This document shows positions 2,732 through 49,015 of a stretch of DNA of 64,000 nucleotides, one piece after another. Each line of letters begins with the position of its first letter. Position 1 is the stretch's first letter. The notes under the pieces were generated by a model. The model was not told the DNA's origin. It worked only from the letters and a program-made list of their open reading frames with translations, and ran no database searches. Position numbers and translations under genes: made by a program. The stretch is taken from assembly GCA_000165345.1 (NCBI GenBank), contig CM000433.1, positions 640,001 through 704,000 on the forward strand, read 5' to 3'.

Positions 2732-5506
2732 TTAGCCTTTATTATCAGATAAACCTAAACTGGTTTGCTTACATAAACTAATCCACTCTTTATCACTTAT
2801 CTGGGAAGTCAGCCTACGCTCACTTTTCTCCTTTGGATCCGTATTAACCTTAGAGGTGTTATTTACTTGCTTTTTATCACTTTCGCTGATGTTATCATTT
2901 TCTGCTTCACCGTTTTCTGCTTCTCCATTTTCTGCTTCTCCGTTTTCTGCTTCTCCATTTTCTGCTTCTCCATTTTCTGCTTCTCCGTTTTCTGCCTCTC
3001 TATCTTCTGCTTCACCGCTTTCTGCTTTTCTATTTTCTGCTTCTCTATCTTCTGCTTCACCGCTTTCTGCTTTTCCATTTTCTGCTTCTCTATCTATCTC
3101 TTCTTCTCGATCTTCTATTCTCGAAGGTTCATCACATTTAGTTTCTATAATATCATAAAGTTGCTCCAACTCCTCATGAAGTTCTTCAAGCTCCTCTTGT
3201 TGTCTATCACATTGGTCTTCAAGACCTTTAATCACTTTCTGGAATGCTCTAATTTCTCTATCATGCTGTATAATATCATTATCCAGGCGTTGAGCCATCA
3301 TCGCAAAAAATCCAATATAAGGCTCTGGAGCTCTTCTTCCATATGACTTTAATGGTCTAATTAGCTCTCTTATTGAAAGGATTTCATTTCTATTTGCAAT
3401 ATAAGGATCAGGGAAATCTTCTAAATGTCTTAAAATTTCATTCACTTGTTCCCTACTTAACAATCCATCCATATTACCACTCATTTCATTATGATTATTT
3501 CTACCTTTAGAATTTAAAGCTAATACGGTATCTGATTCATTCTCAACTTTATTTCCACTATTCAAATCACGTCCTGAGAAAATCCCAAGTCCAAGACTTG
3601 TTAATTCTTTTTCTATTTGGAATACATAGTTATTCTCATTTGATAGATGTAAACTTTCAATTTCTGTATCTTCTATTTCATTATATACTATTCTTCCATC
3701 TTCCTTTGAATTCTGCTGATAACTACTTTTTGAGAAAGTTAGTAAATGTTTCTTTAATCTATGGTATATTCTTACCATTTCTTGAAGTTGATTAAGTAAC
3801 CTATTTTCATTATTTATTGACCTTTCCCATTGTTTATTTAGAATATATAACATTTGTATAATACCAATACTTAAGTATTCATTATTCAAATAATTTGATT
3901 TATAATCTTCTAAGTTTACCATAAATTCATAAGCATTTTCAAAGTAGTTTAACAAATATCTTGAAGAGTCATGATCATATTCTCTACTTAATTGAGATCC
4001 ATCCAAAATTTCTTCATCATATAGAATTTCTTCTACAATCCAAAGTTTTAATCTGACTAATGTGAATAAAAGTCTCTTGTTAATCATAAAAACTTGATCA
4101 ATACTTGATTTCATTCTATCTGAAAACTTTGAAGATCTTGATGTATTAATCACTGGAATTGAATCCATTGAATTCTTTTCTGTTGTTATATCTGAAAATG
4201 ACATGATTCTACTAGAATTCATTGAAGTTCTTTCAGATGCTGAACCTGCCATTTCAATCTTTTCTTTTAATATTGAAATTTGTTCATCAAGCTTTAATAA
4301 AAAATTCTTTTTTTCATTATATATATTCTCTTCATCTTCTTCTCCATTTTTTTCTAATCTATATATAATTTCATTAACTTCAGTTTTTAAAGGAGAAAAT
4401 ACCATCTTAATCTTATTTTCACTTGGACCAGAATAACCAATATTATTAGATTTCTTACCAATCTTTGAATTATTATTACTATTATTAGTGGAGTTATTAT
4501 TATTATTATTGCCATTATCGTTATTATTGTTATTTTCTAAATTCATATCTTCTAATAGTTGAACCTCCTCATCTACTAAATATTGTTTTATTAATATCAT
4601 TTTTGATTTAAAGTATATAAATCCATTCAATCTTACCATTATTCTCATCCAATTACGTTTATTATCAATTTGATTTTTATTAATATTGGTGATTACATTA
4701 CTATCACATTCGTAATCTTGATCTTCATTATTGAAATTATGGTCTAATTTCCCATATATATTATCTTGAGAGTCATTAACATTTCTTCCTAAATGATTAA
4801 CTCCAACCTTTAAATCACCAACAAATTTTTCTGTCTTATCATTAAATAGTACATGTCTTATATTACTTTTCACAGTTACTTTACTTGAATCAGAACTATT
4901 TGATGAGAGCTCATTATTAAACATTAACTCATCCTGAAGTGTTTTAACTTCTTTATTTCTAAATGTACAATCTGCCATAGATTCAATCCTTGATTGCATA
5001 TCAACTTCTGTCATAATATTATTTCCATCATTACAGCTTTCTAATTCTGCAATTCTTTGCTTAGAATTCTCCAATATATCTTTTAGTTCTGATATATCTC
5101 CATTTAATCTTGAAATTTCCTCCTTAAGAAATTCGATTTCTTCTTGATTTTTACGTATTATTTCTTTATCTGTTTGTGTTTTTTTTATTAATAACTCCTT
5201 TTCGTGAGTTGTTTCTTTTAATCTCTCTTTTAATGCATTCATAAAATGTTTCTGAGTTTCAGATTCATCTACTTTGTTTTTTAGCTCCAATAAAGTGCTT
5301 TCTGATATTAAAATAGTTGAATTATCCTTTCCTTTTAATGCTGATATATCGATATCAGCTTGAAAGTTTTTAATATCTGATAGACTACTAGTTCTATGTC
5401 CATTTATTCTACGAATTCTTCCACGAATCTCCTCCAGAGAAGCATCATCATAAACATTAGTTTTCATTCTTCTATCAAAAATCTCTTCTCTTGAATTTCT
5501 TCCCAT
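2732..5506 (-). CDS. Large coiled-coil protein with C-terminal (EAENG)n pentapeptide repeats and Asn-rich low-complexity inserts. Function unknown.
   Basis: 924-aa ORF. Heptad-like charged segments such as ELEELHEELEQLYD and LKEEISRLNGDISELKD. A 15-nt tandem repeat at ~2893-3100 encodes the EAENG units. No catalytic motif recognised. Confidence 0.6.
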   Translation of the reverse strand: MGRNSREEIFDRRMKTNVYDDASLEEIRGRIRRINGHRTSSLSDIKNFQADIDISALKGKDNSTILISESTLLELKNKVDESETQKHFMNALKERLKETTHEKELLIKKTQTDKEIIRKNQEEIEFLKEEISRLNGDISELKDILENSKQRIAELESCNDGNNIMTEVDMQSRIESMADCTFRNKEVKTLQDELMFNNELSSNSSDSSKVTVKSNIRHVLFNDKTEKFVGDLKVGVNHLGRNVNDSQDNIYGKLDHNFNNEDQDYECDSNVITNINKNQIDNKRNWMRIMVRLNGFIYFKSKMILIKQYLVDEEVQLLEDMNLENNNNNDNGNNNNNNSTNNSNNNSKIGKKSNNIGYSGPSENKIKMVFSPLKTEVNEIIYRLEKNGEEDEENIYNEKKNFLLKLDEQISILKEKIEMAGSASERTSMNSSRIMSFSDITTEKNSMDSIPVINTSRSSKFSDRMKSSIDQVFMINKRLLFTLVRLKLWIVEEILYDEEILDGSQLSREYDHDSSRYLLNYFENAYEFMVNLEDYKSNYLNNEYLSIGIIQMLYILNKQWERSINNENRLLNQLQEMVRIYHRLKKHLLTFSKSSYQQNSKEDGRIVYNEIEDTEIESLHLSNENNYVFQIEKELTSLGLGIFSGRDLNSGNKVENESDTVLALNSKGRNNHNEMSGNMDGLLSREQVNEILRHLEDFPDPYIANRNEILSIRELIRPLKSYGRRAPEPYIGFFAMMAQRLDNDIIQHDREIRAFQKVIKGLEDQCDRQQEELEELHEELEQLYDIIETKCDEPSRIEDREEEIDREAENGKAESGEAEDREAENRKAESGEAEDREAENGEAENGEAENGEAENGEAENGEAENGEAENDNISESDKKQVNNTSKVNTDPKEKSERRLTSQISDKEWISLCKQTSLGLSDNKG
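2893..3100. repeat. About 13 tandem copies of a 15-nt unit (ttctgcttctccRtt), coding for (EAENG)n on the minus strand.
   Basis: Seen directly: gcttcaccgttttctgcttctccattttctgcttctccgttttctgcttctccattttct... Copies alternate A/G and c/t variants. Confidence 0.9.
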
Positions 5507-6597
5507 TATTAGATTTATATTTCAATTTTATAGTCAAATTTTACCCATTAATAAATTATTTCCAAGATTACTAGTACAAATCTTGATATTTCTTTAATAC
5601 CAGTTTGCTTTTAATGTTCTCAATTGACTTAAAGACAAAAATGAAAAGAGATTTTTTTTTTTTTTTTTTAAAAAAAAGGAGAGGAGATAGGGAGAGAGGA
5701 AGAAAGAAAAAAAAAAGGTCCAAATACTCTTTTTCTTCTTTCTATTTAATAAGCACAATCTATTATTCTTCAATTCATTTGTTTCTAACTCTTTAAACTA
5801 TTTTTTTTTCATATTCTCATTCCAATCTAAAGTCTAGTTTTTTTAGTCACACAAGCTATCTCCTTTTCTTTCTGAATATAAATTAATAGGTTAAATATGC
5901 ACTTATTTATATTCTTTTAATTATATTTCTACTTTAACTTGAAATTCCAAATTTTATTTCTTCTCTCTGAATATTTTACTCAGACGGTTAATTAATTAAA
6001 AATGCAATAATATGAAAAGAAAAAAGAATTCTTTTTTTCTTTTTTTTTTATACAATTACTTTTCCTTTTGCTTTTAATTGTAATTATATAATTAAAGATG
6101 TATTTATTTTTCATTATTTATTGTAAAGACACTTTCCCGCCTAAATTTTACATGTCATTGTCATGCATTATTTTATTAATTATAATTGAAAATTAACTAG
6201 ATAAATAATTCTTAAATACCTCTTTTTTTTTAAATTGTATTTTTTTTAGATAATTATTTAAATTAAAAACATTATGTGCTTTGACAAATTATTGAAGATT
6301 TATTGAATGTTAGGAAAAAAAAAGATATATTAAAAATAATACAATAAGATATATCAATATTAGAAAAACAAATAATCGCGCCCTGGCGCCAAAATTTCAA
6401 GTAAAAGTAAAATAATATTGTAAAAATACGACAAGGAGTAAATAAAAGTGTGGGAAAGTAAACGTCAAGTAAAATGAATAGTAATTTAAAGCTGCACATA
6501 TTTAATTATAATATATTTCACATATTAATAGTACATGAATTAGGTGTATGGAGAGAAGAAAATAAAATAGTATAGTTAATTATTAAGTAATAATAAT

Positions 6598-6660
6598 AAA
6601 AATAATAATAACTGTTGTTTATCCTTAATACTATTATTATTATTATTATTATTATTAAAT
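6598..6660. repeat. AT-only microsatellite ((AATAAT)n then (ATT)n) in the long divergent intergenic region.
   Basis: taataataataaaaataataataac...ctattattattattattattattattaaat. Confidence 0.8.
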
Positions 6661-6909
6661 TAGTCTAGTGTTTTATTGCTAATATCTTTTTAATATTTTA
6701 ATAGGATAAAGTTATTGAAGATAATATTTTGTTGATTAGTTTTTCAAATTTTTAAAGAGATCATTGGCTATTGGCTTGAAAGAATAAATCAAAAAGTTGA
6801 TAATAGAAAGAAGAAGAAAAAAAGTTAATTTACAATAATTTTGACAAGTAATAATTAGAAAATAATAAATACATTTAAGTAAATAAATATAAGAATATTA
6901 GAAGAAAAA

Positions 6910-7980
6910 ATGGCATGCCCAAGATTGTTAAGCGATAATGATTTATGTAGATTTAGAACAAAACCTTGTAGAAGATCAAAGCAAATGGGATGTGATTTTG
7001 GAATTACTAGATGCCAATACTCACATAACATTTACTGGCCAAGAAGATGCCCTTTCTATCTCTCAAACCAAAGTACTATTAGGTATATCCCAGTTTTGTG
7101 TCCTGATATCATAATTAAAGAGGATGAGAGTTCAATTTCACATTGCAATAGAGGAGGAGGATGTCCTTTTGCTCATTCTTATGAAGAAATTAATTATCAT
7201 CCTTTAATGTACAAAACAAAGATATGCGAACAATTTCAACGTGGAGATTGTAATACTTATTATTGTCATTTAATTCATGGATTAGCTGAAAGGCGAGAAT
7301 CTAAAGTTTATTTGCTACCATATACGCAAAATGTTCAAGTTCCTAATTTTCCTGGTGTTGTAATAGCTAATAGAGTTAACAAACCGTTTGTTGCAAATAG
7401 CCAACTGAATTATCAGACACAAAAGTCTTTAGTTAATAATGAGAATATTTGTAATAATCATGAAAATGGTTTTATCATTAGGAGAAATAATTTTGAAAAT
7501 ATGATTTCTGATAAATGGAGTGAAAGAATTTTTTCTCAAAATAATAATGGTGATGATTTTTGGAAATCTACTGAAAATGACGAGCTAACTACAATGGATT
7601 CTATTTCTAAATCAGAATCTGAAAATAATAACTGTGAAAATATGAAATCATCAAAATTGGTTACTAAAACACCTGCACCACATGCTTTAAATAGAATAGA
7701 AAATGATAAATCTGTCCAAGAAAAAATGAGAAATGAAAATATTCTCAATGTCTTTAGAGCATTTGTACTAGAAGATAATGATATCTTATCAGTTTCTAAT
7801 GATAATTGTAGAGTCCAAGCAATTAATTCTACACTTTCTAATAACAAAATCCAACAATTAAAAGTTAGAAACGAAAACCTTCAGACTCAAGAACATAGTA
7901 AAAGTTTTAATCACATAATTGAGGACTCTGAGATTATTAAGAATAATGAAAATTCAAATACAAGCAATTTTTTCGATTAA
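6910..7980 (+). CDS. CCCH (C3H1) zinc-finger protein, likely RNA-binding.
   Basis: 356-aa ORF. Several C-x7-8-C-x5-C-x3-H-like units at the N-terminus (CRFRTKPCRRSKQMGCDFGITRCQYSH; CNRGGGCPFAHS; KICEQFQRGDCNTYYCHLIHG). The C-terminal half is low-complexity N/S-rich. Confidence 0.7.
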   Translation: MACPRLLSDNDLCRFRTKPCRRSKQMGCDFGITRCQYSHNIYWPRRCPFYLSNQSTIRYIPVLCPDIIIKEDESSISHCNRGGGCPFAHSYEEINYHPLMYKTKICEQFQRGDCNTYYCHLIHGLAERRESKVYLLPYTQNVQVPNFPGVVIANRVNKPFVANSQLNYQTQKSLVNNENICNNHENGFIIRRNNFENMISDKWSERIFSQNNNGDDFWKSTENDELTTMDSISKSESENNNCENMKSSKLVTKTPAPHALNRIENDKSVQEKMRNENILNVFRAFVLEDNDILSVSNDNCRVQAINSTLSNNKIQQLKVRNENLQTQEHSKSFNHIIEDSEIIKNNENSNTSNFFD

Positions 7981-8169: not shown

Positions 8170-10101
8170 CTATTCCAAATGAAACTTCAGCTTCTGTGTG
8201 TTACCAACAAATATATAATGCGACGGAAATTCTCCGTGCTCATTTAATCCTGGACACCAAACTTCTATTGTTGGAAATGCCATATTTGCATGTGGACGAT
8301 TTGGTTGCATGTCTTCCATACCGACATTATTATCCTCATGCACCGCTCTAATATGTACAATTCCTGCCATTGAGGAGATTGGCGCGCATGTTGAATTTTT
8401 TGCATGGCATATTCCCGCAATAGTATTCACAAGATTTTTTAAAGGTTTATTATATGGAAGAATTTGAGCTTGATTATCAATCATAGATACATCTTGGTCA
8501 GCAGGTAGAGCTGATGCAGGTAAAGATGCAATCTGTAGTTCAACTAGATGGCACCAAGTACTTGAAACAAGTGTACTAGTATTAATTAGTGACTTGCCAT
8601 CATCTCCCATAGGTATTACTTTGAGATTAATTGTATGAGGTTTGAGCGGGAATTCGGGGGTTCCAAAAAAATAAGATTTTAAACATTCTCTTCTAATTTC
8701 AGCAAGCCTTTGCGAGGTGATACTGATAACTCCGTCAGACTTTGAGACTCCAACAACAGAAATCTTTGGTAGTTTTTCAAACTGCTTTTCAATATTTAGT
8801 TTATTAATATCAATTTCCTGATCAGAGCTTGAGTTATTTGCATTTCCTGACTCTTCTAAATGTTGTTTTTCTAAGATTTCATAGCTTTGGGGTTCCTTAT
8901 AGTCATATTGATCTGATAAATAGTGTTGGGTACTTGGATCGTCCATTACTACCACGACATCAATGTTGAAAATAGAAATAAGTTCTTTTAAAAGGTCATT
9001 TGATGGCTGAAATGGAGCGTTTAATATAAATCCTGAAGCTTGAGAGTTTGTATCTTGAATGTTTTGACTCCTAAGCGATATTGCACCACTTAGAAGCCTA
9101 CACAGGTATAAATATAATTGAAGGTCATCTGTTACATTTAAATGACCAAAAAAGAATGAAAGAGGATTTCTTAACTCTTTGCTGTGAAGAAAAAATTCAT
9201 TAACTTTTATTGCTCCAATTGTTCCAGCTGGAAACTGCATATTTTCTTTATCCGTAGATCCTCTCGGATCTAAATCTATAAATAAAGGTGTATACCCTCT
9301 TCTTGCTGCATAATTACAAAGAATCTGACACAAGGTAGATTTACCTGAATTAGATGATCCTGTTACCATAACTCTTGGGCCTAAAGTCCCATGAAGCTTT
9401 GAAAAATTTCTCCTGTTATCCAATACTTGAATAACTTCCATATACTCTTTCATACTTTTATTCACACTTTCATATTCTTGCTGAACTAATCCTCTAATTT
9501 GTAAAATACATCCATGCCAAGTATATATCGCAACTCTTGATAATGGAGCAATCTTCATATCAACATCTGGAGGAAGCTCAGCTCCAAATATTTCTGCTGT
9601 TGTCATTGCATTTGTCTGAGCTCCTCCACTTCCTGTCACAGCTCCTGCCCCTGATGATGATGAAGAGTAAAGTCTAATTGTGCAAGGCTGACTTGGATGA
9701 GCAATTATTCTCAATTCACTTCCTGCTTCAATCTTATAAGCTCTTACTTGAGACTTTGTCATTCCAACCCCTGGGCCCACATCTCCTCCAATTCCACCTC
9801 CTTGCCCTGACCCCAGTCCTCCCGTTCCTGCTCCTGTTCCTACTCCTATTCCAACTCCTGCTCCTATCCCTGTTCCAACTCCTTGTCCTAACCCTAGTCC
9901 AACTCCTAGTCCAGGAATAGCTCCAGAACTTGCTCCTACCCCAGAATTAAATCCTATTCCTGATGGTATTTCCATTTTACATTCTAAAGCGCTTAAAGAA
10001 ATAAATAATTCAAAATTTTCCTTGTAAATTGTTACTCTGACCGTAGAGCTGTAAATTTTGTGTAAATTCAAATTAAATGAGTAATATTTCCTTCCATTCA
10101 C
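8170..10101 (-). CDS. CLP1: Clp1 polynucleotide kinase (mRNA cleavage/polyadenylation factor Clp1 family). An unusual Gly-rich N-terminal extension precedes it. The true start may be the internal Met at 9762.
   Basis: P-loop GPRVMVTGSSNSGKSTLCQILCNYAARRGYTPLFIDLDPRG matches the Clp1 Walker A context. N-domain ELRI..., AEIFGAEL and VAIYTWHGCILQIRG match Clp1 ELRFEV / AEIFGTEL / VAVFTWHGCSVQLSG. The upstream in-frame region 9763-10101 encodes GxGxG repeats. Confidence 0.75.
   Translation of the reverse strand: MNGRKYYSFNLNLHKIYSSTVRVTIYKENFELFISLSALECKMEIPSGIGFNSGVGASSGAIPGLGVGLGLGQGVGTGIGAGVGIGVGTGAGTGGLGSGQGGGIGGDVGPGVGMTKSQVRAYKIEAGSELRIIAHPSQPCTIRLYSSSSSGAGAVTGSGGAQTNAMTTAEIFGAELPPDVDMKIAPLSRVAIYTWHGCILQIRGLVQQEYESVNKSMKEYMEVIQVLDNRRNFSKLHGTLGPRVMVTGSSNSGKSTLCQILCNYAARRGYTPLFIDLDPRGSTDKENMQFPAGTIGAIKVNEFFLHSKELRNPLSFFFGHLNVTDDLQLYLYLCRLLSGAISLRSQNIQDTNSQASGFILNAPFQPSNDLLKELISIFNIDVVVVMDDPSTQHYLSDQYDYKEPQSYEILEKQHLEESGNANNSSSDQEIDINKLNIEKQFEKLPKISVVGVSKSDGVISITSQRLAEIRRECLKSYFFGTPEFPLKPHTINLKVIPMGDDGKSLINTSTLVSSTWCHLVELQIASLPASALPADQDVSMIDNQAQILPYNKPLKNLVNTIAGICHAKNSTCAPISSMAGIVHIRAVHEDNNVGMEDMQPNRPHANMAFPTIEVWCPGLNEHGEFPSHYIFVGNTQKLKFHLE
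9763..9960. repeat. GC-rich imperfect 9-nt repeat (cc[at]actcct / cctgctcct) encoding Gly-x-Gly repeats in frame upstream of the Clp1 catalytic body.
   Basis: tcctgctcctgttcctactcctattccaactcctgctcctatccctgttccaactccttgtcctaaccctagtccaactcctagtcca. Local GC content is far above the window average. Confidence 0.8.
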
Positions 10102-14090: not shown

Positions 14091-15614
14091 TTAATTTTCA
14101 ATTAATTCACTTCTATCTAAAGTTGGTATGTTGTATAGAACTTTTTTAAACTTTTTAATTTTGTACTGATTATATGAAGTTTTTGGAATACATGATGAAA
14201 TAATAATTGCCCAATTTGATAGCACATTAATTTTGATTTTCCCTTTTTTTGATTGATAAGTATCTGAAGGAGATAAAATATCCCTCCATTGGCCATCCTT
14301 TTCTTTCCAATCAACTTCAAAATCTTCAACAGATTTGGTATCAATATTAATTGCAACAAAAATAAATTCTTCTTTAATACGCCTTTCGAATACCAACAAG
14401 GTTTTGGTATTCAATAATAATGAATAATTTCCTTTAGTTAGAATTTTACCTATAATTGGATGACCTCTAATTTGAGAAATAAATTTAATCAAAACCAAAA
14501 ATCCATCATTTTTATCAGAATTAAGCCACTCAAGATCCTTAATTGTAAGCTTTGGTCTAAGCTGAAAGTCAGCTCGTCGACCTTTTCCTTTAACTCCTTT
14601 AAATCTAAATTCACTTCCATAATAAATTGAAGGAGAACCATTTAACATAAAGAGAATTATATATACAGTTAAAAGATCGTCTTCGATTTCAATTTGACTT
14701 GCAATTCTAGTTACATCATGATTATCAACAAAATTATACATCCATCCACTACTAAATAAATCATTTTGTTGAGAAATCACATTTGCAAGCAATTCAAGGT
14801 TATTAAAACGGTGAGATTTCCATATTGCATCCCATAAAACATAATTAGTTACCCCATCAAATGGTTGATTAGTATATTCATATTTGATACTGGCAGATGG
14901 ATTTGGTCTCACCCAAATTCTTTGGTCGCCATGAATAATTTCTGCTAATAAAGCAAAATTTTCTCCAAATTTAGTTTTACAAAAGTCCCTGAATATTCTC
15001 CAGAATTCAATTGAAATACAGTCAGCTGCATCTAATCTTAAACCATCAATTTCATATTCTTTAAACCAAAACTCTACAGCATCAAATAAGTATTTCTTCA
15101 CCTCATAATTTTCATGATTCAAAGTTACTAATTCATAATAACCTTCCCAAGGGGTGTAAGTAAAATTATCTCCTTTTTGAGATTTTTTTGAAAAATCCAA
15201 GCCTTTAAACCAATCACAATACTTGGAATGTTTACCATTTATCTTAATATCGTTGAATGCAAAGAAGTTTCTACCAACATGATTAAATACTGCATCGATA
15301 ATTACCTTAATTCCATTTGAATGATATATTTTTACAAGATTTTTAAAATCTTCATTACTTCCTAGCCTTTTGTCTATTGACAACAAATCTGTTGTATCAT
15401 ATCCATGCGCTTCCGATTCAAAAACAGGCCCTATATATATTCCTCCAATATTCAAATTTTTTAAATGATCAATCCATGATTTTGATCCTAACTCTTCTAA
15501 TTTGTTAACTCTTACAATTTTGTCTGAATTTATCCTTTCTACACCGCATAATCCTATTGGATATATATGATACCAATTGCAATTCTTATACCATTCATTA
15601 CCATTTATTACCAT
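14091..15614 (-). CDS. Glycoside hydrolase family 13 (alpha-amylase family) enzyme.
   Basis: Conserved GH13 regions: IDAVFNHVG (region I), GLRLDAADCI (region II, catalytic Asp), FALLAEIIHGD (region III Glu), FVDNHDVTR (region IV). 507 aa. Confidence 0.85.
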   Translation of the reverse strand: MVINGNEWYKNCNWYHIYPIGLCGVERINSDKIVRVNKLEELGSKSWIDHLKNLNIGGIYIGPVFESEAHGYDTTDLLSIDKRLGSNEDFKNLVKIYHSNGIKVIIDAVFNHVGRNFFAFNDIKINGKHSKYCDWFKGLDFSKKSQKGDNFTYTPWEGYYELVTLNHENYEVKKYLFDAVEFWFKEYEIDGLRLDAADCISIEFWRIFRDFCKTKFGENFALLAEIIHGDQRIWVRPNPSASIKYEYTNQPFDGVTNYVLWDAIWKSHRFNNLELLANVISQQNDLFSSGWMYNFVDNHDVTRIASQIEIEDDLLTVYIILFMLNGSPSIYYGSEFRFKGVKGKGRRADFQLRPKLTIKDLEWLNSDKNDGFLVLIKFISQIRGHPIIGKILTKGNYSLLLNTKTLLVFERRIKEEFIFVAINIDTKSVEDFEVDWKEKDGQWRDILSPSDTYQSKKGKIKINVLSNWAIIISSCIPKTSYNQYKIKKFKKVLYNIPTLDRSELIEN

Positions 15615-15809
15615 TATTATTTAATTATATTTCTAAATATGTGTAAATATTTATTTTTATTTCTGTACATATATATACATATTCATCAGAAATGAATATA
15701 AATATTTTTAAAAAAATAATAATAAATAAGTATTAATAATTATTATACTTTAGCTAACAATAATTAATTCATTTCACACGAATTTTTTTATTAATATATT
15801 TTTGTCCAC

Positions 15810-15915
15810 ATGCAAAATTATTGACATGAAATTTTTTAAAAACTTGCATCTATACCGGTATCAATATTGCATGTGGACGCATTTTTTTTAATTACAAAAT
15901 AATTAAATACCGGTA
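15810..15915. promoter_or_regulatory. Divergent promoter region (GH13 gene on minus / SNF2 gene on plus). It carries an inverted pair of GCATGTGGAC elements, the 14-mer GCATGTGGACGCAT, and two copies of the palindrome TACCGGTA.
   Basis: ttgtccacatgcaaaat ... cttgcatctataccggtatcaatattgcatgtggacgcattttttt ... aaataccggtaaataat. Confidence 0.55.
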
Positions 15916-16145
15916 AATAATCAAAAGATAAAATTTAAAAAAAGTGTAAATTAATTATGAAAGTTTTTAATTAGAAAAAATAATTAAAAGAATATTTCTT
16001 TGTATAATTATTAATTTTTGAACAAATTCCAGGCCAAAACCTAAGTGCCATAATAATAGAAATATTTATAAATAGTAAAGAAAGAAAATTTTGTAAGTTA
16101 TGGAGCTAAATTGAAAAATATAGAAGGCATTAGTTATTTACAAAC

Positions 16146-18752
16146 ATGACTGAAAAAGAAGAAAATCCAATTTTTTTGGAATGCAAAGCTGACCTTCAAG
16201 CAGAAAAGTTTGAAAATTTAAATAAAAGCACCAATCTGGATGAAACCAATTTGGATGATTTAATTAATAAGATAGATAATGTGACTATATCTGAAAAAGT
16301 GAATATTCTGGAAAAAAAAAGAGAGTTTGAGAAGCATGACAGAAGAAGAACTCAGCTAATCGATCAGGATGAAGTGAAAGGAAAACAGGAAGTGATTCAT
16401 ATTGTTGATGATGAATCAGAAACAGTACCACCAGAAAGTTTGCTTATTGACGATTTATTTTTCTCAAACGTTCCAATATCAGATTCTGAGGATAATAATG
16501 TTCATATAAATGAAATTATTGAAGATGATTATGTTGATCCACCTTATGAAGTATATAATGGGTGGCACTGGAATTCAAATAAACTCGAGTATTGTTTAAA
16601 AAGTAATTCAGGAAGAATTCAGAGAAAATTGTATGTTTCACCAAAGATATATGGCAATTTAAGAGATCATCCACATCAATATGATGGTGTTAGATGGATG
16701 TGGAATAGATTCAGAAGAAGTGAAGGGGGAATACTTGCAGATGAAATGGGACTTGGAAAGACTATTCAAGTATGTGTTTTCATTGGGGCATTGTATAGAT
16801 CAGAGATTGCAACCTTTATATTTTTAATTCTCCCTACGAGCTTAATATCACAATGGAAAGAAGAGTTGGATAAATGGTGTCCAAAGATTCCAAAATTCAT
16901 TTATCATGGAAATTTAAATATGCGAGATGAAGCACTAAAAAGCTTATATTTAAGCAAAAGAGGAGGAATTTTGATTACTACTTTTGAGACTTTTAGAAAC
17001 GATGTTCATAAATTGCATGAAATCAATTTGAAGAGTGTACAGTGTCAGTTTGTTAGAAATCATTTGGGGAGTAAAATTACTCCCAAAGATTATTTGAAGG
17101 AAATTTCACAATATAAAGAACCTGATAGAAACTTTAATATTCCATGGGACATTGTAATTATTGACGAGGCTCACAAATTAAAAAATTGTAAAACAAAGCT
17201 TTTTAAAGATATACAAACTTTGAGGAGTTATTGCATAATTTTATGTACTGGCACTCCTTTTCAAAACAGACTAACAGAGCTTTGGTCATTAATACATTGT
17301 GTTAAGCCAAACCTACTTGGGAAAAATATACAAGCATTTAACCATAATTATGCTAAACATATTAATAATTTAAACAATAGAAACATACTTGAAAATGAAA
17401 AGAAGACTTCTGAATTGATTATTAGTAAACTTAAGTATGCTATTAAGCCATACATTTTAAGAAGAACAAAACAAATAATTTCCCAAGTTAATACAAAAGA
17501 AAGTAATCTTAATGCTCAGAATATTAAAAATGAACTTTCTAATATAAAAAAGTATGATATTGTTTTGTGGCACAATCTATCTAGAGATCAATCCCAATCT
17601 TATATGGAAGTCTTAGATAGCCATTCAGTTTCAACAATAATTAATAATTCGGATGCAATTTCTCAAAATAAACAGAAAAATGGAGCAGTATTAGAGCTTA
17701 TTATATACTTACTTAAGGTTTGCAAACATCCTTTGCTTTTACTCAAACCTGAATTCCAATCATGGAGGATTCTACTTAAAAACAAAAGCAACCATGATTT
17801 AAAGCAAGGGGAGGAAGAAGAAGTGGTTAATTCTCAATTTGAAAGCCCTTCAAGTAAAGAAACAACTACTATATCTGCTCACAATACTTTAATGTTTAAC
17901 TCAGCATCTAAATTACCTCAGCTTAATATTGAACTTCTAAGAGATCAAAGCACTAAATTACAAATACTTAACATGATTATCCCTCAGCTCCTCAAGCCTA
18001 ACGAAAATAAGATTTTGGTATTCTCAGAAAGCTTATTAATGCTAGATTTGATAGAGCTTACGATTTTAATTCCAAACAAAATTGATTGGGAAAGACTTGA
18101 AGGAAAGCAATCTCTAGATGAACGAAATTCTAGTATTGATTCTTTCAACAAAAATAACGTAAGTTGTAATGTAAAATGAAAAATTTACTTTTAACAATTT
18201 CAGGAAAAGAGGATCTTACTATTATCTAAACATATTGGATCTACTGGCCTTAACTTAACCAGTGCAAACAAGATAATTCTAGTAGAACCACACTGGAATC
18301 CTACTCAAGATGAACAAGCAATAGGAAGAGCTTATAGAATAGGCCAAAAAAGAGATGTAATCATATATAGGTAAGAATAATTTTATCAAAATAACTTAAT
18401 TGTCTTAAGAAAACTTGACTAATATATATATATAAATCTTTTCTTCAGATTGATAGCGGCTGGAACCATTGAAGATTGGAAGTTTAGACTACAACTACAT
18501 AAAACTGGTCTTGCTAGGATATTTCTAGGAGGGGCTAAACAGGAAATTACTTTCACAAATGAAGAATTAAAGTGTTTATTTTCATATTCTGAAATGGACT
18601 CAAATGATATTCAAGAAGTCATTTTCAAGTTTAATGTGAATGATAAGCACTATGAGATTCTTAAAAATGATATTGAGGATGATTGCATTAAAGAAATGGA
18701 ACCCTATGTAATGGCATATCTAGACTTTGAAAATATTCAAAGATTTGAATAA
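16146..18752 (+). CDS. SNF2-family DNA-dependent ATPase/helicase (Rad54/ERCC6-like), 3 exons: 16146..18158, 18204..18370, 18449..18752.
   Basis: Exon 1 carries the SNF2_N motifs GGILADEMGLGKTIQ, DEAHKLKN, GTPFQNRLTELWSL. Introns are GTAAGT...CAG (18159-18203) and GTAAGA...TCAG (18371-18448), both frame-preserving. They restore the helicase-C block [59 protein letters not shown]. Confidence 0.85.
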
Positions 18753-18971
18753 TTGAATAACTAATGGTGCTTCAAAATTCATATCAATTCTTTTGCATGG
18801 AAATTTTTCTTTAAAAATTAATTTATTATTATTCTGGTATTTAATTTGAAGGCAAATTATTTATATTATTAATTTCCCCTGTAAAATATATATATATATA
18901 TTAGACTCTGTTTGGGCGGGCTCTCCATTTAAAGAGGTTCCGTCTTGACATTTTGACAAGAAAATAAGAAA

Positions 18972-26095: not shown

Positions 26096-26469
26096 TACTA
26101 TAAATCTTTCAAAACCATTTCTTTTCCAAAATTTAATCACTATTACTGACTTTAATGCTGTCAAATTCCAATTCCCGCCATAACTTTAAGTAATTAATGA
26201 CAGTATTTTCAAAAAAATTTTTTTTAGTAATAATCTGCTCGGAATTATAAAGTTCTAAAAATAAACCAACTCAAATTCATATATTAATTTTTTTAATTGC
26301 TTCATTATAGTGAGAATTCTTTTAATTTGTTATTATTTCTTTCATATATTAAAAAAACAAAATTCTACTAAATTCATTCCATTCTATTATAACAATATTT
26401 AATATTAGATAAAATAAATATTAACTATTTAAAATATTATTTGAATCATTTTTTTTTAAACTATTGCAA

Positions 26470-26600
26470 TTTCATGTGGACGCATGTAATGCATGTCAGT
26501 ATAAAAACAATTATTGCAAAGTTTCTATACCGGTAAAATAAAGTTACGAAATGATTAATACCCTCAAAAGCCCGGTAAAAAAATGACAATTTCCACGTAT
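26470..26600. promoter_or_regulatory. Divergent promoter region (DNAJC21 on minus / BRR2 on plus) with the same composite as at 15810-15915: CATGTGGACGCATG, GCATG, CTATACCGGTA, plus CCCGGTA and TTCCACGTA.
   Basis: tttcatgtggacgcatgtaatgcatgtcagt ... gtttctataccggtaaaataaag ... aaaagcccggtaaaaaaatgacaatttccacgtat. Confidence 0.55.
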
Positions 26601-26855
26601 AGTATAATATAAAAATATTTATTTTTTTAATTATTTTTAAAAATAATTTTAAAAAATTGTTTCTTAAAGCTTGGAAGTTATTTTAATAGTTAGAATTAAT
26701 GCTAAGAAATACTTGAACCAGACCCATCAAACTATTAAAAGTTTAGGTGTTTTTTTTTTTAAAGGTTTACTTTATTTTCATTATTGATTTAATCGGAGAC
26801 GTATATAACGTAAGCTTTAATTTATTGATTGCTATATAAATATTATGTCAAAAAA

Positions 26856-29800
26856 ATGGCTGACGATTATGAAATGTCCAAGAGATTTGGATATAAAGCT
26901 AATAGTAATTTGGTAATTCAAACTAGTCAAAGAAGCAGAGAAAATGTACCAACAGGAGAAGCAGAGAGTTTGGCTGGGAGGATTAAGTATAAGATGGGAG
27001 ATTTGGCTAATAAACGAGCGAAACCTAAAATCAAAGAGAAGAAACATGTTAAAAAAAAATCAAACAGAAGCATTGTTAATGAAAATGACTCGGGTAATAT
27101 CTTAGATTTAGATCTTCGAAGTGCAGGAAACTCCTATACTCCAACTACAATGGAAACAAGACTTGCTTATGATGAGTTATTAGGGATTTTGACAGATATT
27201 CTAGGGTCTCAACCAAGCAAAATATTGGAAGATACAGCTTTTGAATTGCTTATAGTTCTTAAAAACGATGAATTGAGAGATGAGGAAAAATATAAGAAGT
27301 GCAAGGAGATAATTATTCAGCTAAATAATACAACATATAGTGATATATTAGATAAAAGCAGGAGAATTGTTGACTTTACTTTAAATATGGAAGAGATGGA
27401 TGATTCTCAAAATAAGCAAACTGAGGAAGCTTCTGAAGTTGCGGTAATTTTTGATGAAAGTGATTCTGAGAAAAGAAAAGGTGAACTTTCTGATGGAGAT
27501 GATGACAGTGAAAACGATAGTGATACTAGTGAAAGTGATGATGAAGAGGATAACGATTATGATGATGATAATGAATACTACGAAGAATATGAAAACGATG
27601 TCACTTTGGAAATTGGAAAGGACGAGGCTGAGAATTATCTCAATGATGAGAATTATAGTCGTGATAATGATTATAATGAGAATCATGAGCATTCAGGATA
27701 TATTCGATTAAAGAACAAGGATGAATACCTAAAGGAAAATGAAGATCCCGATATTATTGAGATTAGGAAATTGGATGCTTATTGGCTACAAAGAGAGCTA
27801 TATTCACTTTTTCAAGATGCAGATAAATCCTTGGATATGGAAAAGGAGATCATTTCTATTTTGAATTTAGAGGATGATCAAGAGTGTGAGAATTCTCTTG
27901 TTATGATGTTTAATTACGAGCATTTTAATTGGATTAAGAAAGTCTTAAAAAATAGATGGAGTATATATTTTTGTACAATACTTGGTCAGGCACCTTCAGA
28001 TTCTGAAAGGGAAAAGATTATAGATAGAATGAGAAATCATCAAAAAGGATCAGAAGTCTTAGATTTATTTAGTAAGCCTTCATTATGGAAAAACAAGGAT
28101 TCTGATTTTTTTAAATCAATTAATAAGTATATTGAGGAGACTACGGGTGTTATGACTGGTTTAGATGATGAAGATAAGAATCTAATAACTTCTAGAAAAC
28201 CTCATGGAAAACTTTTAGATCTTGAGAGAATATATCAAGAACAGAGTTTGAATTTAAATTTAAGCACAAAAGTAGTACTTCCTCAAGGATCTGAACGTAT
28301 AGAAAATGCTGATTATGATTCTATTACTATTCCTCCATCAAAAAGACAAATTAAGGAAAAGCAAAGATTAATTTCTATTGAAGAGCTTCCAGAGTGGAGT
28401 AGGGAATGCTTTAGATGTGTATCAGTATCATATTTGAATGAAATTCAAAGTAGAGTTTTTGAGACAGCTTTTAAAGATTTTGAAGAAAATTTGTTAGTTT
28501 GTGCTCCAACAGGATCAGGTAAGACTAACATTGCTATGCTTTGCATTTTGAATATAATTTCACAATTTATTGAGCCTCAAAATAATGGAAAATTTACATT
28601 GGACACTTCTAAATTCAAAATTGTATATGTATCACCAATGAAAGCTTTGGTATCGGAACAAGTTGAATCCTTAAGAATTCGACTAAGACCTCTTGGGATT
28701 CTAGTAAATGAGATGACAGGCGATACACGAATTAGTAGATCACTTATGGAAATGACCCAAGTATTCATTACTACACCAGAAAAATTTGATGTTGTCACTA
28801 GAAAATCTACTGATGGTCTTTCTGAAAAACTTAAGTTAATCATATTTGATGAAGTTCATATGTTACACGACTCCAGGGGATCAGTATTGGAAGGAATTGT
28901 TGCAAGATTTAAGAAAAGTTTTACAAGATTAGTGGGATTGTCAGCAACATTACCCAATTTTATAGATGTTGCAGAATTCCTAAATGTTAATCCAAAAAGA
29001 GGTCTTTATCATTTTGGTCCAGAATTCAGACCTGTTCCTCTTTTACAAACATTTATTGGTATTAAAGCAAAGAAGGGGTTCAAGAAGTTGCAATTAATGA
29101 ATAGCCTTGTATATGATACAGTAATTAAAGATATAACAAATCATCAAATTTTGGTTTTTGTCCATTCCAGAAAAGATACAATTCATACTGCAAAATACAT
29201 TAGAGATACTGCAACAGAAAATGGAATGCTTAATTTGTTCTTTTCTGGAAACAATAATGTTTCTAGAGAAATTATTTTGGATGAAGTTAATAATATCAAA
29301 TCGAATAATCTTAAAGAAATATTACCTTGTGGAATTGGTATTCATCATGCAGGATTAGTAAGATCTGATAGAAAAGTAGTTGAAGACTTATTTTCTGATG
29401 GACATATTAAAGTTCTTGTTACCACAGCAACTTTAGCTTGGGGTGTAAATTTACCAGCTCATACTGTAATTATTAAAGGGACTCAAATTTATCAACCAGA
29501 AAGGGGAGAATGGACAGAACTTTCACCTTTGGATATGTTACAAATGATTGGAAGAGGAGGTAGGCCTCAATACGATAATAACGGCCATGGAGTTGTTATA
29601 ACAGATTTTGATCATTTAACTTATTATCTTTCTTTGTTGAATCAACAGCTCAATATAGAATCTCAATTAATTCCAAAATTACCAGATCTTATTAATGCTG
29701 AGATATCTCTTGGTAATGTTCAAAATAAAAGAGATGCTCTTGATTGGATTAAAAAGACTTTCTTGTACATTCGAATAATTAGAAATCCAAGTTTGTATGG

Positions 29801-32800
29801 TCTTGATATTGATGAAATTATTGACAAATCCAGACAAGATAAGGATTTAGTTGCTGAAAATAAGGATGCTTTAGAAGAAGAAAGAGATCTAGCATTCAAG
29901 AATGCAGTTGAGTCTTATTTAATAAAATTGGTAGAAACAGCTCTTGATAGATTAGAGACTTGCAAGCTGATTCAATACAACCATAAAGATGGACATGTTG
30001 GATCATTAATGCTTGGAAGAATTTCCTCTCATTTCTATTTATCACCAGAAACAATTCAAGATCTTGATAAGCAATTACTTCCAAATTTATCTGAAATTCA
30101 ACTTTTTAGATTATTTTCAACTTGTAAAGAATTCAAATTTCTTCTTGTTAGAAATGAAGAAAAGATTGAATTGGAGAAGTTGGTGGATAAAGTTCCGATA
30201 CCTATACAAGGAGTGGGATCCAGCAATGTTGATGGTAATGATAATATTGGCAATATGGTTGATCTTGATACTTTTACTAAAGTTAATGTTTTACTTCAAC
30301 TTTATATAACAGGGTCAAGATGGATTAATGCAAAACTAACTCTTCTCTCTGATCTTCACTTTATTGCTCAATCTGCTCCAAGAATATTCAGAGCTATTTT
30401 TAACTTGGCTATTAAAAGAAGGTGGTCAACGTTGGCTAGAAGATCACTTAAGATTGCAACAGTAAGTTAAAATAGTGAATGAATTATTAACCTGATGTAA
30501 ATTATGTTAATAATATGATGATAAAACGTTTAAAATTCTTGTCACTACCATTGAAATATTCATATTATTATATGAATTTTGAAAATAAATAAACGTAAAA
30601 ATCTGATTAATCAAATTTATCATATTTTCTGAATGGTTTAATAATTTATCACAATAATTCTTTCCTTAATTAATCTATTTTTTAGATGATAGAAAGAAGA
30701 TCTTGGGAGGCTATGCTACCTTTAAGACAATTTAAAGGTATTTCCGAAGAAGTTGTTAAAAGATTAGAAAAGAAAGACATTAACTGGAATACTTACTACA
30801 GCTTTACCAGTAATCAATTGGGTGAAATGCTCAAATCTTCTAAATTAGGTAAGTTTTTTCAATTTTGCTAATTCCACATCTTTTGCATTATTTCCAATAT
30901 AATTTAATAATTAATATTGGAACAGTTTCCCGCCAAATTTTGCATGAAAATGAATTTTGTAAAGATGATGACAAAAAAAAAACAAAATGACAAGCATATG
31001 TCTGAAAGACATAAATTTAAAAATCATGGTGAAATTGATTGATTAGTTATTGAAGTGTTGCCAGTACTTCTTGATTAAAGATGGAAAGCTGCGTTTTCAA
31101 TAGCAATGAAGTAATTTAATCATGATTTTTATTTTTTTATATTGATGTTAAAGTTTTTTTATATTGGTCTGATTTATTCAAATTAACTCTTTGCATGCAG
31201 TTATAAATTTATTTAGGCGGGAAAGCTTTATGCAGTATGTGGGATAGTTAAAAGGTTAATAAGAAATTACTAATTATTTAAAATAGGTCCCGTTTTATAT
31301 AATTTGATAAGAAAAATACCAAGATTGGAGATATCTGGAAATATCTTCCCAATTGACTCGAAAATTTTACAGCTAGATTTGGTTATTAAATCTAATTTTA
31401 TATGGGATAATAAGATTCATGGTCAATCAATGACAGGAGATATTAATACAGATGAAATAAATACTGGCGAAACATTCTGGATTCTAATAGAAGATTCTGA
31501 TGGTGAATATTTATATCTCTCTGACATGATAGTAGTAAGACCATCATTGAATGAGATTTCCAATAATAAAAATGAAAATGAAATATTTATGCAAGATGAA
31601 TATTATTTAAGTTACCAGATATTCTTAGAAAAGAAAGGTGTAAGAAAAAATTATGACCAAGACGATGTAATTCCCCCATTTATATTTGTAAGGGCTATTG
31701 CTGATAAATGGTTGCATTCAGAAACGAGTATTTCTGTACCAGTTGAGAATAAAGTAATATTACCAAATATCCAATATGAAAATACTGAATTATTAGATTT
31801 ACAACCAATTAGAGTAAAAAAAGCATTTTCTGAATCTGGATTTGAGGTGTATTTGAGGAGGATGTTTAGTATTGGAGATAATGATAAAGAATTTGATCAT
31901 CAAAGCTATGATTCATTAAAATTAAATGGCCTTCAGACACAATTGTTTAATTTGATTTACAATTCAGATAAAAGCTTTTATTTATCATCACCTCCTGGAA
32001 ATGGTCAGTTTATTTGTACTTGTATGGGAATTTTGAGGGAGATGAAACAAGATTCAAAATTTCAGTCCAAAAATTTCCAAGTACTATTCTTATCATGTAA
32101 TAAGGATAAAGCTGATTATTATGTTTCTAAGTTCGAGTCAATTTTTGGTGTGAATCAAATAGTTTCTGGTTTGAAAGGAAAGACTCCAGTCCAAATTGAA
32201 CAAGAATTAAAATCCAAGAGTATAATAGTTTCAGATATTGAAACATGGGATAATCATGTTGGAAAAAAACTTACAAAGATACGTGATCTTGTTAAGAAAT
32301 TAAAACTTTTGGTTATTGATGGTATTGAGTTTATTAATAGCAATAATTCAAATGGCTCTGTAATAGAATCAGCTATTTCCAGAATTAGATATATTATTAC
32401 TCCTTTGAATTTGAAAATAAGAATATTTGCATATTCAAAGTGTATTTCTAATGCAAATGAGGTTTCTGAATGGCTGGGAATATCAAGGGAGAATGTATTT
32501 TCTTTTGATCAAAATATATTCAATGAAACTATTAATAAGAAAGTTATTGCCTTTGATTCTTATTATCGTTCAAGCCGTTTTCAAATGATGTTAAAGTATC
32601 TCAAAGATAATATCATTTTGCAGTTAATTAATCAACCTAAAGAAGAAAAGAAAACTTTAATAATATTTGTTTTGGATTATGAATTCTGTTTAAGCTTGGC
32701 TAATGAGCTATCTTTATTTATTGTCTCAGAAAGTGATCAACAAGAAGAAGGTGTTACTGAATATAATTCTTTATTAAAATTCTCAATACACAATGGAATA

Positions 32801-37627: not shown

Positions 37628-37991
37628 TAATATTTCCTAATAATAAATATTAAATTCTTCAAATAAATTTTAAATTTTTTAAAGTTTAATATAAATAACG
37701 CTAATATTAAGTTGTTGATGATTTATCTATAATTTTATTGATACAATATATTTATTAGGGAAAAAAGCATTTAAGTAGATATACTCAATATTGAACTATC
37801 TCTTTATATCACTTTTAATTTTTTTTTTTAATCTTTTTTTGACATTATCATGAAAAAAAAAATAATTCAAAAGGCCCGCCTTTTAAATTTTATTATTGCT
37901 ATACCGGCATAAGGTACCGAATTAAAAAAAAAAAAAAATGGTAAAGATAAATTAAATAAATTTAAAAATGAAAAAAGAATTATAGAAAAAT

Positions 37992-45728: not shown

Positions 45729-45839
45729 TGTTAGAGTATGTTATTAGCCAGCCTCTCAACTACAAAAAAACTGTTCTAAAGTTAATGCCTTTATTTAATT
45801 CTTGTAATTTAACCCTTTTTTTTTACCTGGTACTTTTTT

Positions 45840-45990
45840 AGGCGCTACCTTTTTTTTCCTTGCTTTTGTTTGTCTCAAGTTCCTTTTATTTCCAAAATCA
45901 TTGGCGCCGTCTTTAATAAAATAAAGCGCGCGCGCGCAAATGCATGTACTCCCGCTTTATAATTTTTCTATGTATTTGTGCATGCAATAT
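45840..45990. promoter_or_regulatory. RPS7 upstream region: GGCGCT / GGCGCCG sites, an alternating (GC)5 tract, and TGCATG elements.
   Basis: ttaggcgctacc ... cattggcgccgtctttaataaaataaagcgcgcgcgcgcaaatgcatgtactcccgctttat ... tgtgcatgcaat. Confidence 0.5.
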
Positions 45991-46722
45991 TGTTCAAGAT
46001 GCTTTATGAATTATAAATGTTTATCAAATGAAATATAAACAAAAGGTTTAATTATAGAATTTAATTAATATTTCAAATATTTTGAATTTGTCAACTGAAA
46101 TTTATTTTAAGTAAGATTTAACTATTAGTTTGATTTTTTTTTTTAAATTAAATCTGTGTAGAAATTTAATTCAGGTACCTTAGTACCCAAAAAAAAAAAG
46201 AATTTATTCTAAGAGCAATATAAAATAATGTTAAATTAATAATTATTGTTATATTAAATTTAAAAAGTGGCATAATTATATCAACATTTGTCTTTTTTTT
46301 TTTAATAATTTTTGAATATTTAAAAAATAGTCATTAGTAATTCGTCTAAAAATGATTTAAAAAAAAAAAAAAAAAAAGAAATACTATACATCAAAATATC
46401 AATAAAACTACATCTTTGTATAATAAAATGAATTAATAACTTTTGAAAGCATACTCTAATTAATGATTTTTTTTCTTTTGTAAAACATGCAAATTTAAAT
46501 ATTAATGTGTGCGTGTGAATTTAACTCCAATATTAAAAGTTATTCGAGTATTTAAAGTTGCAAATTAAAAAGAAAAAAATTAAAAATAACAACTAATTGA
46601 TATTATTTGAATAAACCATTATAATTCTTTATTATGGTTTATTTTGCAATAAATTAGGAAGAAAAAAAAAATTTTATTATTAATTTCTAATTGGCATTAT
46701 TTTGAAGAAATAACAATTTAAA

Positions 46723-48813: not shown

Positions 48814-48944
48814 TAACTTAAAATCTACTCAAAATAATATTTTCATTGCTGAAATAGCAAAAAAATTACAAAAAAAGTTAACTTCTACTTAGTTTCCAAG
48901 AATAACTTGATATTATTATTATTATTATTTTTTTTTTCCAATTT

Positions 48945-49015
48945 TCTATACCGGTATTACCCACATTTTAGGCGCCATACATGTAATTTGCATGACAAAT
49001 TTTGCATTTATTATT
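48945..49015. promoter_or_regulatory. Divergent promoter region (Nse4-like gene on minus / esterase gene on plus): CTATACCGGTA palindrome, GGCGCC, and GCATG elements.
   Basis: ttttctataccggtattacccacattttaggcgccatacatgtaatttgcatgacaaattttgcattt. Confidence 0.5.

Follow-up and report, generated by a model that had tools for sequence, protein, structure and literature searches.

Intergenic regions of this part of the Cryptosporidium parvum genome contain two short recurrent motifs, a CCGG-centred palindrome (M1) and a second word (M2), which are likely to be distinct cis-regulatory elements that bind proteins at Cryptosporidium RNA polymerase II promoters. M1, in the form (C)TATACCGGTA and often situated beside TTGCATGTGGAC, is very probably the binding site of a transcription factor. 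Judged from counts and alignments, both motifs are demonstrably non-random, restricted to intergenic DNA and held under purifying selection across the genus.

The window analysed is a 64 kb stretch of C. parvum chromosome 5, with about 28% G+C and long, closely packed open reading frames. Four loci carry the motifs. Locus A (~15.8 kb) is the intergenic region between a GH13 alpha-amylase gene (minus strand) and an SNF2 ATPase gene (plus strand), and locus B (~26.5 kb) is the spacer of 681 bp, cgd5_2950/cgd5_2960, between a DNAJC21-like gene (minus strand) and BRR2 (plus strand); for all four genes, Pfam agrees with the identities given in the first-pass annotation of this DNA. Locus C (~37.9 kb) is the upstream region of NOP9 (Pfam), a minus-strand gene ending at 37627. 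Locus D (~48.9 kb) separates an Nse4-like gene, whose 311-aa product has a C. hominis counterpart named non-SMC element 4, from a carboxylesterase gene (Pfam) on the plus strand that begins at 49328. Protein cluster look-ups return the C. parvum locus tags 5g2930, 5g3020 and 5g3060 in the window, and a published table identifies cgd5_2960 as Brr2, cgd5_2920 as an SNF2-type protein and cgd5_3070 as an esterase.

Two of these gene models differ between annotations. BRR2 extends over 26829–35086 as three long open reading frames (26829–30470, 31304–33298 and 33734–35086), the first in a frame other than that of the remaining two, and cgd5_2960 of the old annotation covers only part of the gene. 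C. ryanae has it annotated as three separate genes, whereas a single gene of ~2390 aa is annotated in C. meleagridis and C. ubiquitum; the discrepancy could be due to introns, to frameshifts or to splits in the annotation. The GH13 alpha-amylase of C. andersoni (syntenic block 4237–6972) is annotated with 911 aa, compared with 501–513 aa in the intestinal species, which could reflect a domain gain or a gene-model fusion.

Table 1. Positions of M1, M2 and neighbouring elements in the 64 kb window (footprint blocks are those of the multi-species 8-mer scan)
Feature	Position	Strand	Locus and remarks
E2F-type site TTCCCGCC	26172–26179	−	Locus B; close to DNAJC21 start
M2, inverted; reads TTGCATGTGGAC on minus strand	15804–15815	−	Locus A; footprint block 15805–15815
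M1a, TTGCAT-CTATACCGGTAT; holds palindrome ATACCGGTAT	15844–15861		Locus A; footprint block 15850–15861
M2, TTGCATGTGGACGCAT	15867–15882	+	Locus A; 16–18 bp from M1a in six species; footprint block 15867–15877
M1b, ATACCGGTAA	15907–15916		Locus A; footprint block 15907–15916
M2 with GCATG repeats, CATGTGGACGCATGTAATGCATG	26473–26495	+	Locus B; footprint block 26471–26480
M1a, CTATACCGGTAAA	26525–26537		Locus B; footprint block 26526–26533
Conserved block, ATGATTAATACCCTCAAAAGCCCGGTAAAAAAATGACAATTTCCACGTATAGTAT	26551–26605		Locus B; from alignment
Half-site M1b, CCGGTAAA	26572–26579		Within locus B conserved block; CCGGTA kept in 5 of 6 species
M2-like, TCCACGTA	26592–26599		Within locus B conserved block
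E2F-type site GGCCCGCCTTTT	37873–37884		Locus C; ~27 bp from M1; footprint block 37875–37884
M1 variant CTATACCGGCA, then GGTACCG	37899–37919		Locus C; 272 bp upstream of NOP9 ATG, ~90 bp past stop codon of CS-domain gene
M1, CTATACCGGTAT	48946–48957		Locus D
G-box-like TTACCCACA (48957–48965) and E2F site GGCGCC (48971–48976)	48957–48976		Locus D; directly after M1

The palindrome TACCGGTA occurs exactly at 15853, 15908, 26528 and 48949, four copies in the 64 kb where 0.05 are expected, a count that no shuffle out of 100 attains. The recurrence described in the first-pass annotation is thereby upheld at all four sites, with coordinates displaced by 1–3 bases. The extended form CTATACCGGTA, which had been assigned to every named site, is exact only at 15850–15860, 26525–26535 and 48946–48956, while the copy at 15905–15915 reads AAATACCGGTA. 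The related sequence at 37.9 kb is indeed present, as CTATACCGGCA at 37899–37909, with one mismatch. The 10-mer ATACCGGTAT, a perfect palindrome, is exact at 15852–15861 and 48948–48957, in promoters. The resulting consensus of M1 is (C)TATACCGG(T/C)A, with TACCGG as its invariant half-site. TACCGG occupies six positions in the window, every one upstream of genes; its 10 strand-matches (1.77 expected) are all intergenic, with none in coding sequence, and the 100 shuffles never attain this count. Even the CCGG core is scarce, with just 11 occurrences in the window, six of which fall in M1 modules. The M1 and M2 sites lie ~120–420 bp upstream of start codons. The evidence base for M1 comprises these four loci of one window and their orthologues; extrapolated from the one window, and if its density is typical, several hundred M1 sites would be expected per 9 Mb genome. 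M1 may be less common genome-wide than the window suggests, given that published motif discovery came out without it.

The consensus of M2 is TTGCATGTGGA(C/T). The word CATGTGGACGCAT is exact at 15870 and 26473, and its count is likewise reached by 0 of 100 shuffles; the sequence shared by loci A and B, previously given as a 14-mer, holds as a 13-mer only. An inverted copy at 15.8 kb, also part of the earlier description, is found as GTCCACATGC at 15804–15813. Another word, CATGTGGACGATT at 8289–8301, resembles M2 and departs from the 13-mer at two positions; it lies within the CLP1 coding region and probably arose by chance.

Other sequence features accompany the modules. An (ATT)n microsatellite followed by a T-run occupies 48913–48939, just upstream of the locus D M1, and T-runs also flank the modules at 15883–15890 and 26453–26457. 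The word (A)TTGCA or TTGCT, corresponding to the published 'CAAT-box-like' WATTGCA, is located 0–6 bp before M1 or M2 at 15844–15849, 26464–26469, 26514–26519 and 37894–37899. At locus A, five species retain TTGCAYMTATACCGG.

Syntenic blocks of C. meleagridis, C. ubiquitum, C. canis, C. felis, C. ryanae and C. andersoni were compared with the window, the block containing loci C and D being available for five of the six. The divergence of these species can be read from the Pol-phi-like protein encoded between loci A and B, which has homologues only in Cryptosporidium and whose identity to the C. parvum protein is 98% in C. hominis, 46% in C. ryanae and 33% in C. andersoni. M1 and M2 are kept at orthologous promoters of species in which Pol-phi has only 46–53% identity to the C. 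parvum protein. At the GH13/SNF2 and DNAJC21/BRR2 promoters, both motifs persist in C. meleagridis, C. ubiquitum, C. canis, C. felis and C. ryanae, within AT-rich spacers that have otherwise diverged. Conservation in the orthologous promoters of related species, a check named in the first-pass annotation, is thus observed for M1 and M2 alike.

At locus A, the order inverted M2, M1a, M2, M1b is constant from C. parvum to C. felis; only the first M2 is missing in C. ryanae. The inverted M2 is kept as ATCCACATGA in C. meleagridis, C. ubiquitum, C. canis and C. felis; M1a reads CTATACCGGTA(T/C) in C. ubiquitum, C. canis, C. felis and C. ryanae and ATATACCGGTAT in C. meleagridis; M1b is present in all five of these species, as GCCGGTAAAT in C. 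ryanae. C. andersoni retains a single site, TTACCGGTACATGCATG. At locus B, M2 is followed by M1a as TATACCGG(T/C) and then by CCGGTAAAA (or CCGGTT or CCGGTAT) in 5 of 5 other intestinal-clade species, with spacers of varying length; C. ryanae carries M2 in the opposite orientation, as CATGCATCCACATG. The M1a–M1b spacing ranges from ~34 to 65 bp. The place of the E2F-type site near the DNAJC21 start is taken in other species by TCCCGC, GGCGCC or GCCGCC. At locus C, an E2F site is followed 27–31 bp on by M1, which is inverted as CCGGTATAG in C. ubiquitum and C. canis, reads CTACTACCGGCA in C. ryanae and is absent in C. felis. At locus D, the order M1, ACCCACA/CCCCACA, GGCGCC is common to C. parvum, C. 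ubiquitum and C. canis and does not extend beyond them; M1 is kept there as CTATACCGGCG in C. ubiquitum and C. canis, lost in C. felis and displaced in C. ryanae. C. felis has lost M1 at loci C and D, and C. andersoni at three of the four loci, so some promoters can do without the element.

The half-site TACCGG is found in 14 of 16 orthologous M1 intergenic regions and in 4 of 31 other regions (Fisher p = 8e-7). Across the six other species, TACCGG/CCGGTA has 45 matches in 41.4 kb of intergenic DNA and 20 in 213 kb of coding DNA, an 11.6-fold higher density between genes than in coding sequence despite the greater A+T content of intergenic DNA. In both respects, retention above background at orthologous promoters and specificity for intergenic DNA, the motif behaves as a conserved promoter cis-element. 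An unbiased view is provided by a footprint scan of 8-mers with at least three G/C in 13 C. parvum intergenic regions, scored for recurrence on either strand in at least three of the orthologous regions of C. ubiquitum, C. canis, C. felis and C. ryanae. The scan yields 55 conserved 8-mer positions, compared with 0.96 ± 1.3 (maximum 7) under non-orthologous pairing. These positions merge into 21 blocks, among them 6–7 of E2F type, five of TGCATG type, three M1 and three M2. By these block counts, M1 and M2 are footprinted as strongly as the two best-known Cryptosporidium promoter motifs, E2F and TGCATGC. The orthologous retention, the contrast with other intergenic regions and the rank beside E2F and TGCATGC all speak for the original proposal that the palindrome is a candidate transcription-factor site.

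The exact 12–13-mers common to loci A and B might in principle be a chance recurrence or the remnant of duplicated or mobile sequence. The probability of this reading is negligible: chance does not generate the observed counts in any of the 100 shuffles, the similarity between the loci ends at the motif edges, and the sites lie at orthologous positions even in C. ryanae, and for a single site in C. andersoni, and are hence old and maintained.

The scan and the alignments also reveal conserved sequence of other kinds. The RPS7/p25-alpha intergenic region (45729–46722) holds six footprints unrelated to M1 that are kept in at least three of four distant species, including TTGTCTCAAGT at 45870–45880, GGCGCCGTCTTT at 45903–45914 and TGTGTGCGTGTGAA at 46506–46519, the last of which resembles the GTGTGT / GCACAC ApiAP2 motifs. 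In the spacer from SNF2 to Pol-phi, which forms the short Pol-phi promoter, TTGGGCGGG (E2F-type) and GTCTTGACAT are kept across species at 18912–18951; GTCTTGACAT is absent from the main published motif tables. In C. canis, the intergenic G+C is 34–46% (15189–15937; in the other block 6012–6485 and 16886–17343), compared with 17–21% at the same loci in C. parvum, and the M1 and M2 words are still preserved.

Dense conservation spans ~130 bp at locus B, and RNAalifold draws nested pairings there in which M2 pairs with TCCACGT and TACCGG with CCGGTA, as might be expected of a small non-coding RNA gene (snoRNA or similar) placed between the protein-coding genes. Such a gene is very improbable. 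The predicted pairs are mostly invariant and the RNAalifold covariation term is positive on both alignments (+0.45 and +0.92), Rfam gives no match at gathering score over the whole window and none at E ≤ 1 in the two intergenic regions, and no tRNA is detected. The conservation, moreover, is made up of islands of 8–14 bp with spacers of variable length, and the inversions of M2 at locus B in C. ryanae and of M1 at locus C are incompatible with any transcript-level signal, because the sites flip strand between species. An 11-codon open reading frame, ATGATTAATACCCTCAAAAGCCCGGTAAAAAAATGA (26551–26586, upstream of BRR2), was considered as a small or upstream ORF and rejected; because a frameshift interrupts it in C. 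ubiquitum, the locus B block does not owe its conservation to a peptide.

A transcript-level role of another kind, in which the CCGGTAA-type sites serve as 5' splice donors of 5'-UTR introns of the plus-strand genes SNF2 and BRR2, derives from the reading of M1b on their sense strand, where a G precedes GTAAAT and GTAAAA, respectively. The real introns of the window, seven of seven, begin with GT(A/G)AGT, while the M1 sites read GTAAAT, GTAAAA, GTATCA or GTATTA, none with G at +5. Several orthologous sites are CCGGC or CCGGTT, the upstream TATAC half is equally conserved, and the motif also stands upstream of minus-strand genes and flips its orientation, all of which renders a splice-donor function extremely improbable.

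The two motifs are instead best described as protein-binding DNA elements, and the arrangement of the sites suggests how they would be used. Both would work in either orientation, as indicated by the sites that flip between species. They would also be independent of one another, a picture to which the short conserved islands, variable spacers, free orientation, differing partner motifs and turnover at some loci all point. Promoters combine the sites with others as modules, with M1 and M2 at SNF2 and DNAJC21/BRR2, M1 and E2F at NOP9, and M1, a G-box-like site and E2F at Nse4/esterase. The composite with GCATGTGGAC put forward in the first-pass annotation is accordingly not obligatory, since the partners of the palindrome at 37.9 kb and 48.9 kb are E2F and G-box-like sites. 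Nor is every instance in a bidirectional intergenic region, as had been stated: the 37.9 kb site occupies a head-to-tail spacer, flanked on one side by the NOP9 start and on the other by the 3' end of an intron-containing CS-domain gene, with both genes on the minus strand. The tie to divergent promoters is loosened further in C. ryanae, where a synteny break (block 4869–7253) replaces GH13, PP2C and CLP1 upstream of SNF2 with DHHC, ACPS and DEAD-box genes. The M1/M2 module has remained next to SNF2, where it lies between two same-strand genes, DHHC and SNF2. Since it is retained upstream of SNF2 after the replacement of GH13, the locus A module is part of the SNF2 promoter, with no need for divergent transcription.

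Co-regulation of the flanked gene pairs, the functional proposal made at the outset, does not find support. Among the genes listed with expression clusters, BRR2 (cgd5_2960), SNF2 (cgd5_2920) and the esterase (cgd5_3070) belong to clusters 75, 112 and 124, and with three flanking genes in three clusters simple co-regulation is unsupported. The differing clusters of the M1 genes fit a general promoter factor or combinatorial control, and they would explain why cluster-based motif discovery missed M1. M1 appears to be a promoter-proximal site in wide use, and not one that switches a single co-expression group.

The description of the palindrome as outside the standard reported motifs stands for the CCGG element. 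M1 is absent from the 25 motifs of the genome-wide, expression-cluster-based study (Oberstaller 2013), from the six motif families of a 2025 review (PMC12246861) and from the top three motifs of an ATAC-seq study. The words TACCGGTA, ACCGGTA, ATACCGG, CCGGTAT, TGTGGACG and CGTCCACA were not found as a motif in the open-access Cryptosporidium literature searched, where a mention within a figure or table is possible. The primary motifs of 18 C. parvum ApiAP2 proteins (AP2_1-like, AP2_2-like, GTGTGT, GCGTGCA, AAAA and G-box; PMC12246861, Table 4) have no CCGG core. Because none of these listed motifs has such a core, the protein that reads M1 is presumed to be a non-AP2 factor different from the one that reads M2. 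A Myb-type or zinc-finger protein, possibly bound to the palindrome as a dimer, would be the likeliest candidate, on purely inferential grounds.

A different role for such a protein deserves consideration. M1 might be the site of a general regulatory factor (Myb-type, Reb1-like) that keeps promoters nucleosome-free and shielded from a neighbour's read-through, while adjacent AP2 or E2F sites give gene-specific control. The distribution of M1-bearing genes over three expression clusters and the varying partners of M1 agree with this. So does its position at locus C, where it follows the stop codon of the preceding gene on that strand by ~90 bp and comes ahead of the promoter of NOP9, and so do the C. 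ryanae locus A module between same-strand genes and the poly(dT) runs that flank the modules. The 2R-Myb site CCGTTAC is one base from CCGGTA(A/T), and the yeast Reb1 site TTACCCG(G), too, is similar to M1. The Myb/Reb1 resemblance is one base off, however, and M1 does not rank among the top three ATAC-seq motifs; a general factor of this type is rather unlikely. A broader version is equally tentative and should be regarded as doubtful: M1, as ATACCGGTAT, would be the genus-wide site of a non-AP2 promoter-organising or insulating protein of the compact genome, present in perhaps at least a tenth of promoters. This factor–site pair could be ancient in the stramenopile–alveolate lineage, because the identical 10-mer is abundant in oomycete promoters, and the oomycete motif studies assign no factor to it.

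The preferred reading, in which M1 and M2 are two separate promoter elements, bears on how gene control in the genus is understood. Present explanations rely almost wholly on E2F/DP and ApiAP2 factors; no site is known for most of the annotated Myb and zinc-finger proteins, and no factor for several promoter motifs. Of the 16 Myb-domain proteins annotated in C. parvum, just one has been functionally validated. M1, being genus-wide and no listed ApiAP2 primary motif, offers a concrete bait for a new regulator. Nuclear housekeeping genes, encoding the SNF2 ATPase, DNAJC21, BRR2, NOP9 and the Nse4-like protein, are among those with M1 at their promoters. For transgenic parasites, M1 also supplies a defined part with which promoters could be built or tuned. 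Simple phylogenetic footprinting across Cryptosporidium genomes, as applied here, finds elements missed by expression-cluster methods.

Among known motifs, M2 is closest to the AP2_1 family (TGCATGCA / TGCAT). It begins with TGCATG, often followed by more GCATG copies, is located in promoters and is independent of orientation. The TGCAT(GCA) core is present in M2 within TTGCATGTGGAC at 15867 and, inverted, at 15804, and GCATG repeats follow M2 at 26483–26495; M1 has no such core and is unrelated to the family. M2 differs from AP2_1 sites in that it is not the TGCATGCA palindrome and has a conserved 3' half, GTGGA(C/T), which forms a G-box-like tail, and in that the first M2 copy at locus B reads TTCATGTGGAC, without the TGCAT core. 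The tail is not a G-box of the form G[T/C]GGGG with at least four G after G[T/C], as M2 reads GTGGAC or GTGGAT; the G-box is approached only by the ACCCACA/CCCCACA neighbour of M1 at locus D. The element containing GCATGTGGAC, unlike the palindrome, is not wholly new, since similar words have already been filed: CCACATGCA was found by MEME in expression cluster 93 and placed in the AP2_1-like family, and TTGTATGTGGAAA was found by MEME in cluster 124, the two being filed under the AP2_1-like / G-box-like families. A[T/A]G[T/A]GGA.A has been reported upstream of class II oocyst wall protein genes, and the M2-related words are either assigned to known families or unclassified. TGCAT and the G-box are both bound by the AP2 domain of cgd1_3520. 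The TGCAT start and GTGGA end, the related published words and this dual binding suggest that M2 is a composite or variant ApiAP2 site, in which a G-box-like GTGGA tail is joined to a TGCAT core.

M1 shares features with E2F (TTTGGCGGGAAA / TGGCGCCA), the most abundant promoter motif of C. parvum. Like E2F, it is a GC-rich, partly palindromic island in an AT-rich promoter; the two are comparably conserved in the footprint scan, and E2F-type sites lie ~12–30 bp from M1 at loci C and D. The core of M1, however, is CCGG flanked by TA rather than GCGC/GCGG, and the motif does not fit the published consensus [A/T][C/G]GCGC[G/C][A/T]; neither the M1 core ACCGGT nor the M2 core TGTGGAC contains an E2F core (TTTGGCGGGAAA included).

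An exact counterpart is found outside the alveolates. The oomycete promoter motif ATACCGGTAT (Plasmopara streme-5), equivalent to GTACCGGTA (Phytophthora motif-9), is identical to the 10-mer of M1 and likewise resides in upstream regions, where it forms an abundant inverted repeat upstream of 1,284 genes. No factor has been assigned to it in the oomycete motif studies, and the text of the oomycete binding-array paper contains no CCGG motif. The oomycete motif belongs to the stramenopile lineage whereas M1 is alveolate, it is correlated with expression during infection stages and over-represented at RXLR effector genes, and a match of 8–10 bp can arise independently.

The nearest documented specificity is that of 2R-Myb proteins, whose CCGTTAC site differs by one base from the CCGGTA(A/T) of M1, with T in place of G; CCGTTAC/YAACGG itself does not occur in M1. 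The Reb1 site TTACCCG is also one base different, and the Grainyhead site AACCGGTT has a core, ACCGGT, identical to that of M1. M1 matches none of the 2R-Myb, Reb1 and Grainyhead consensus sequences exactly, and these resemblances are leads. In conclusion, M1 would be a new promoter element of a well-known kind, a transcription-factor site, rather than a new kind of system.
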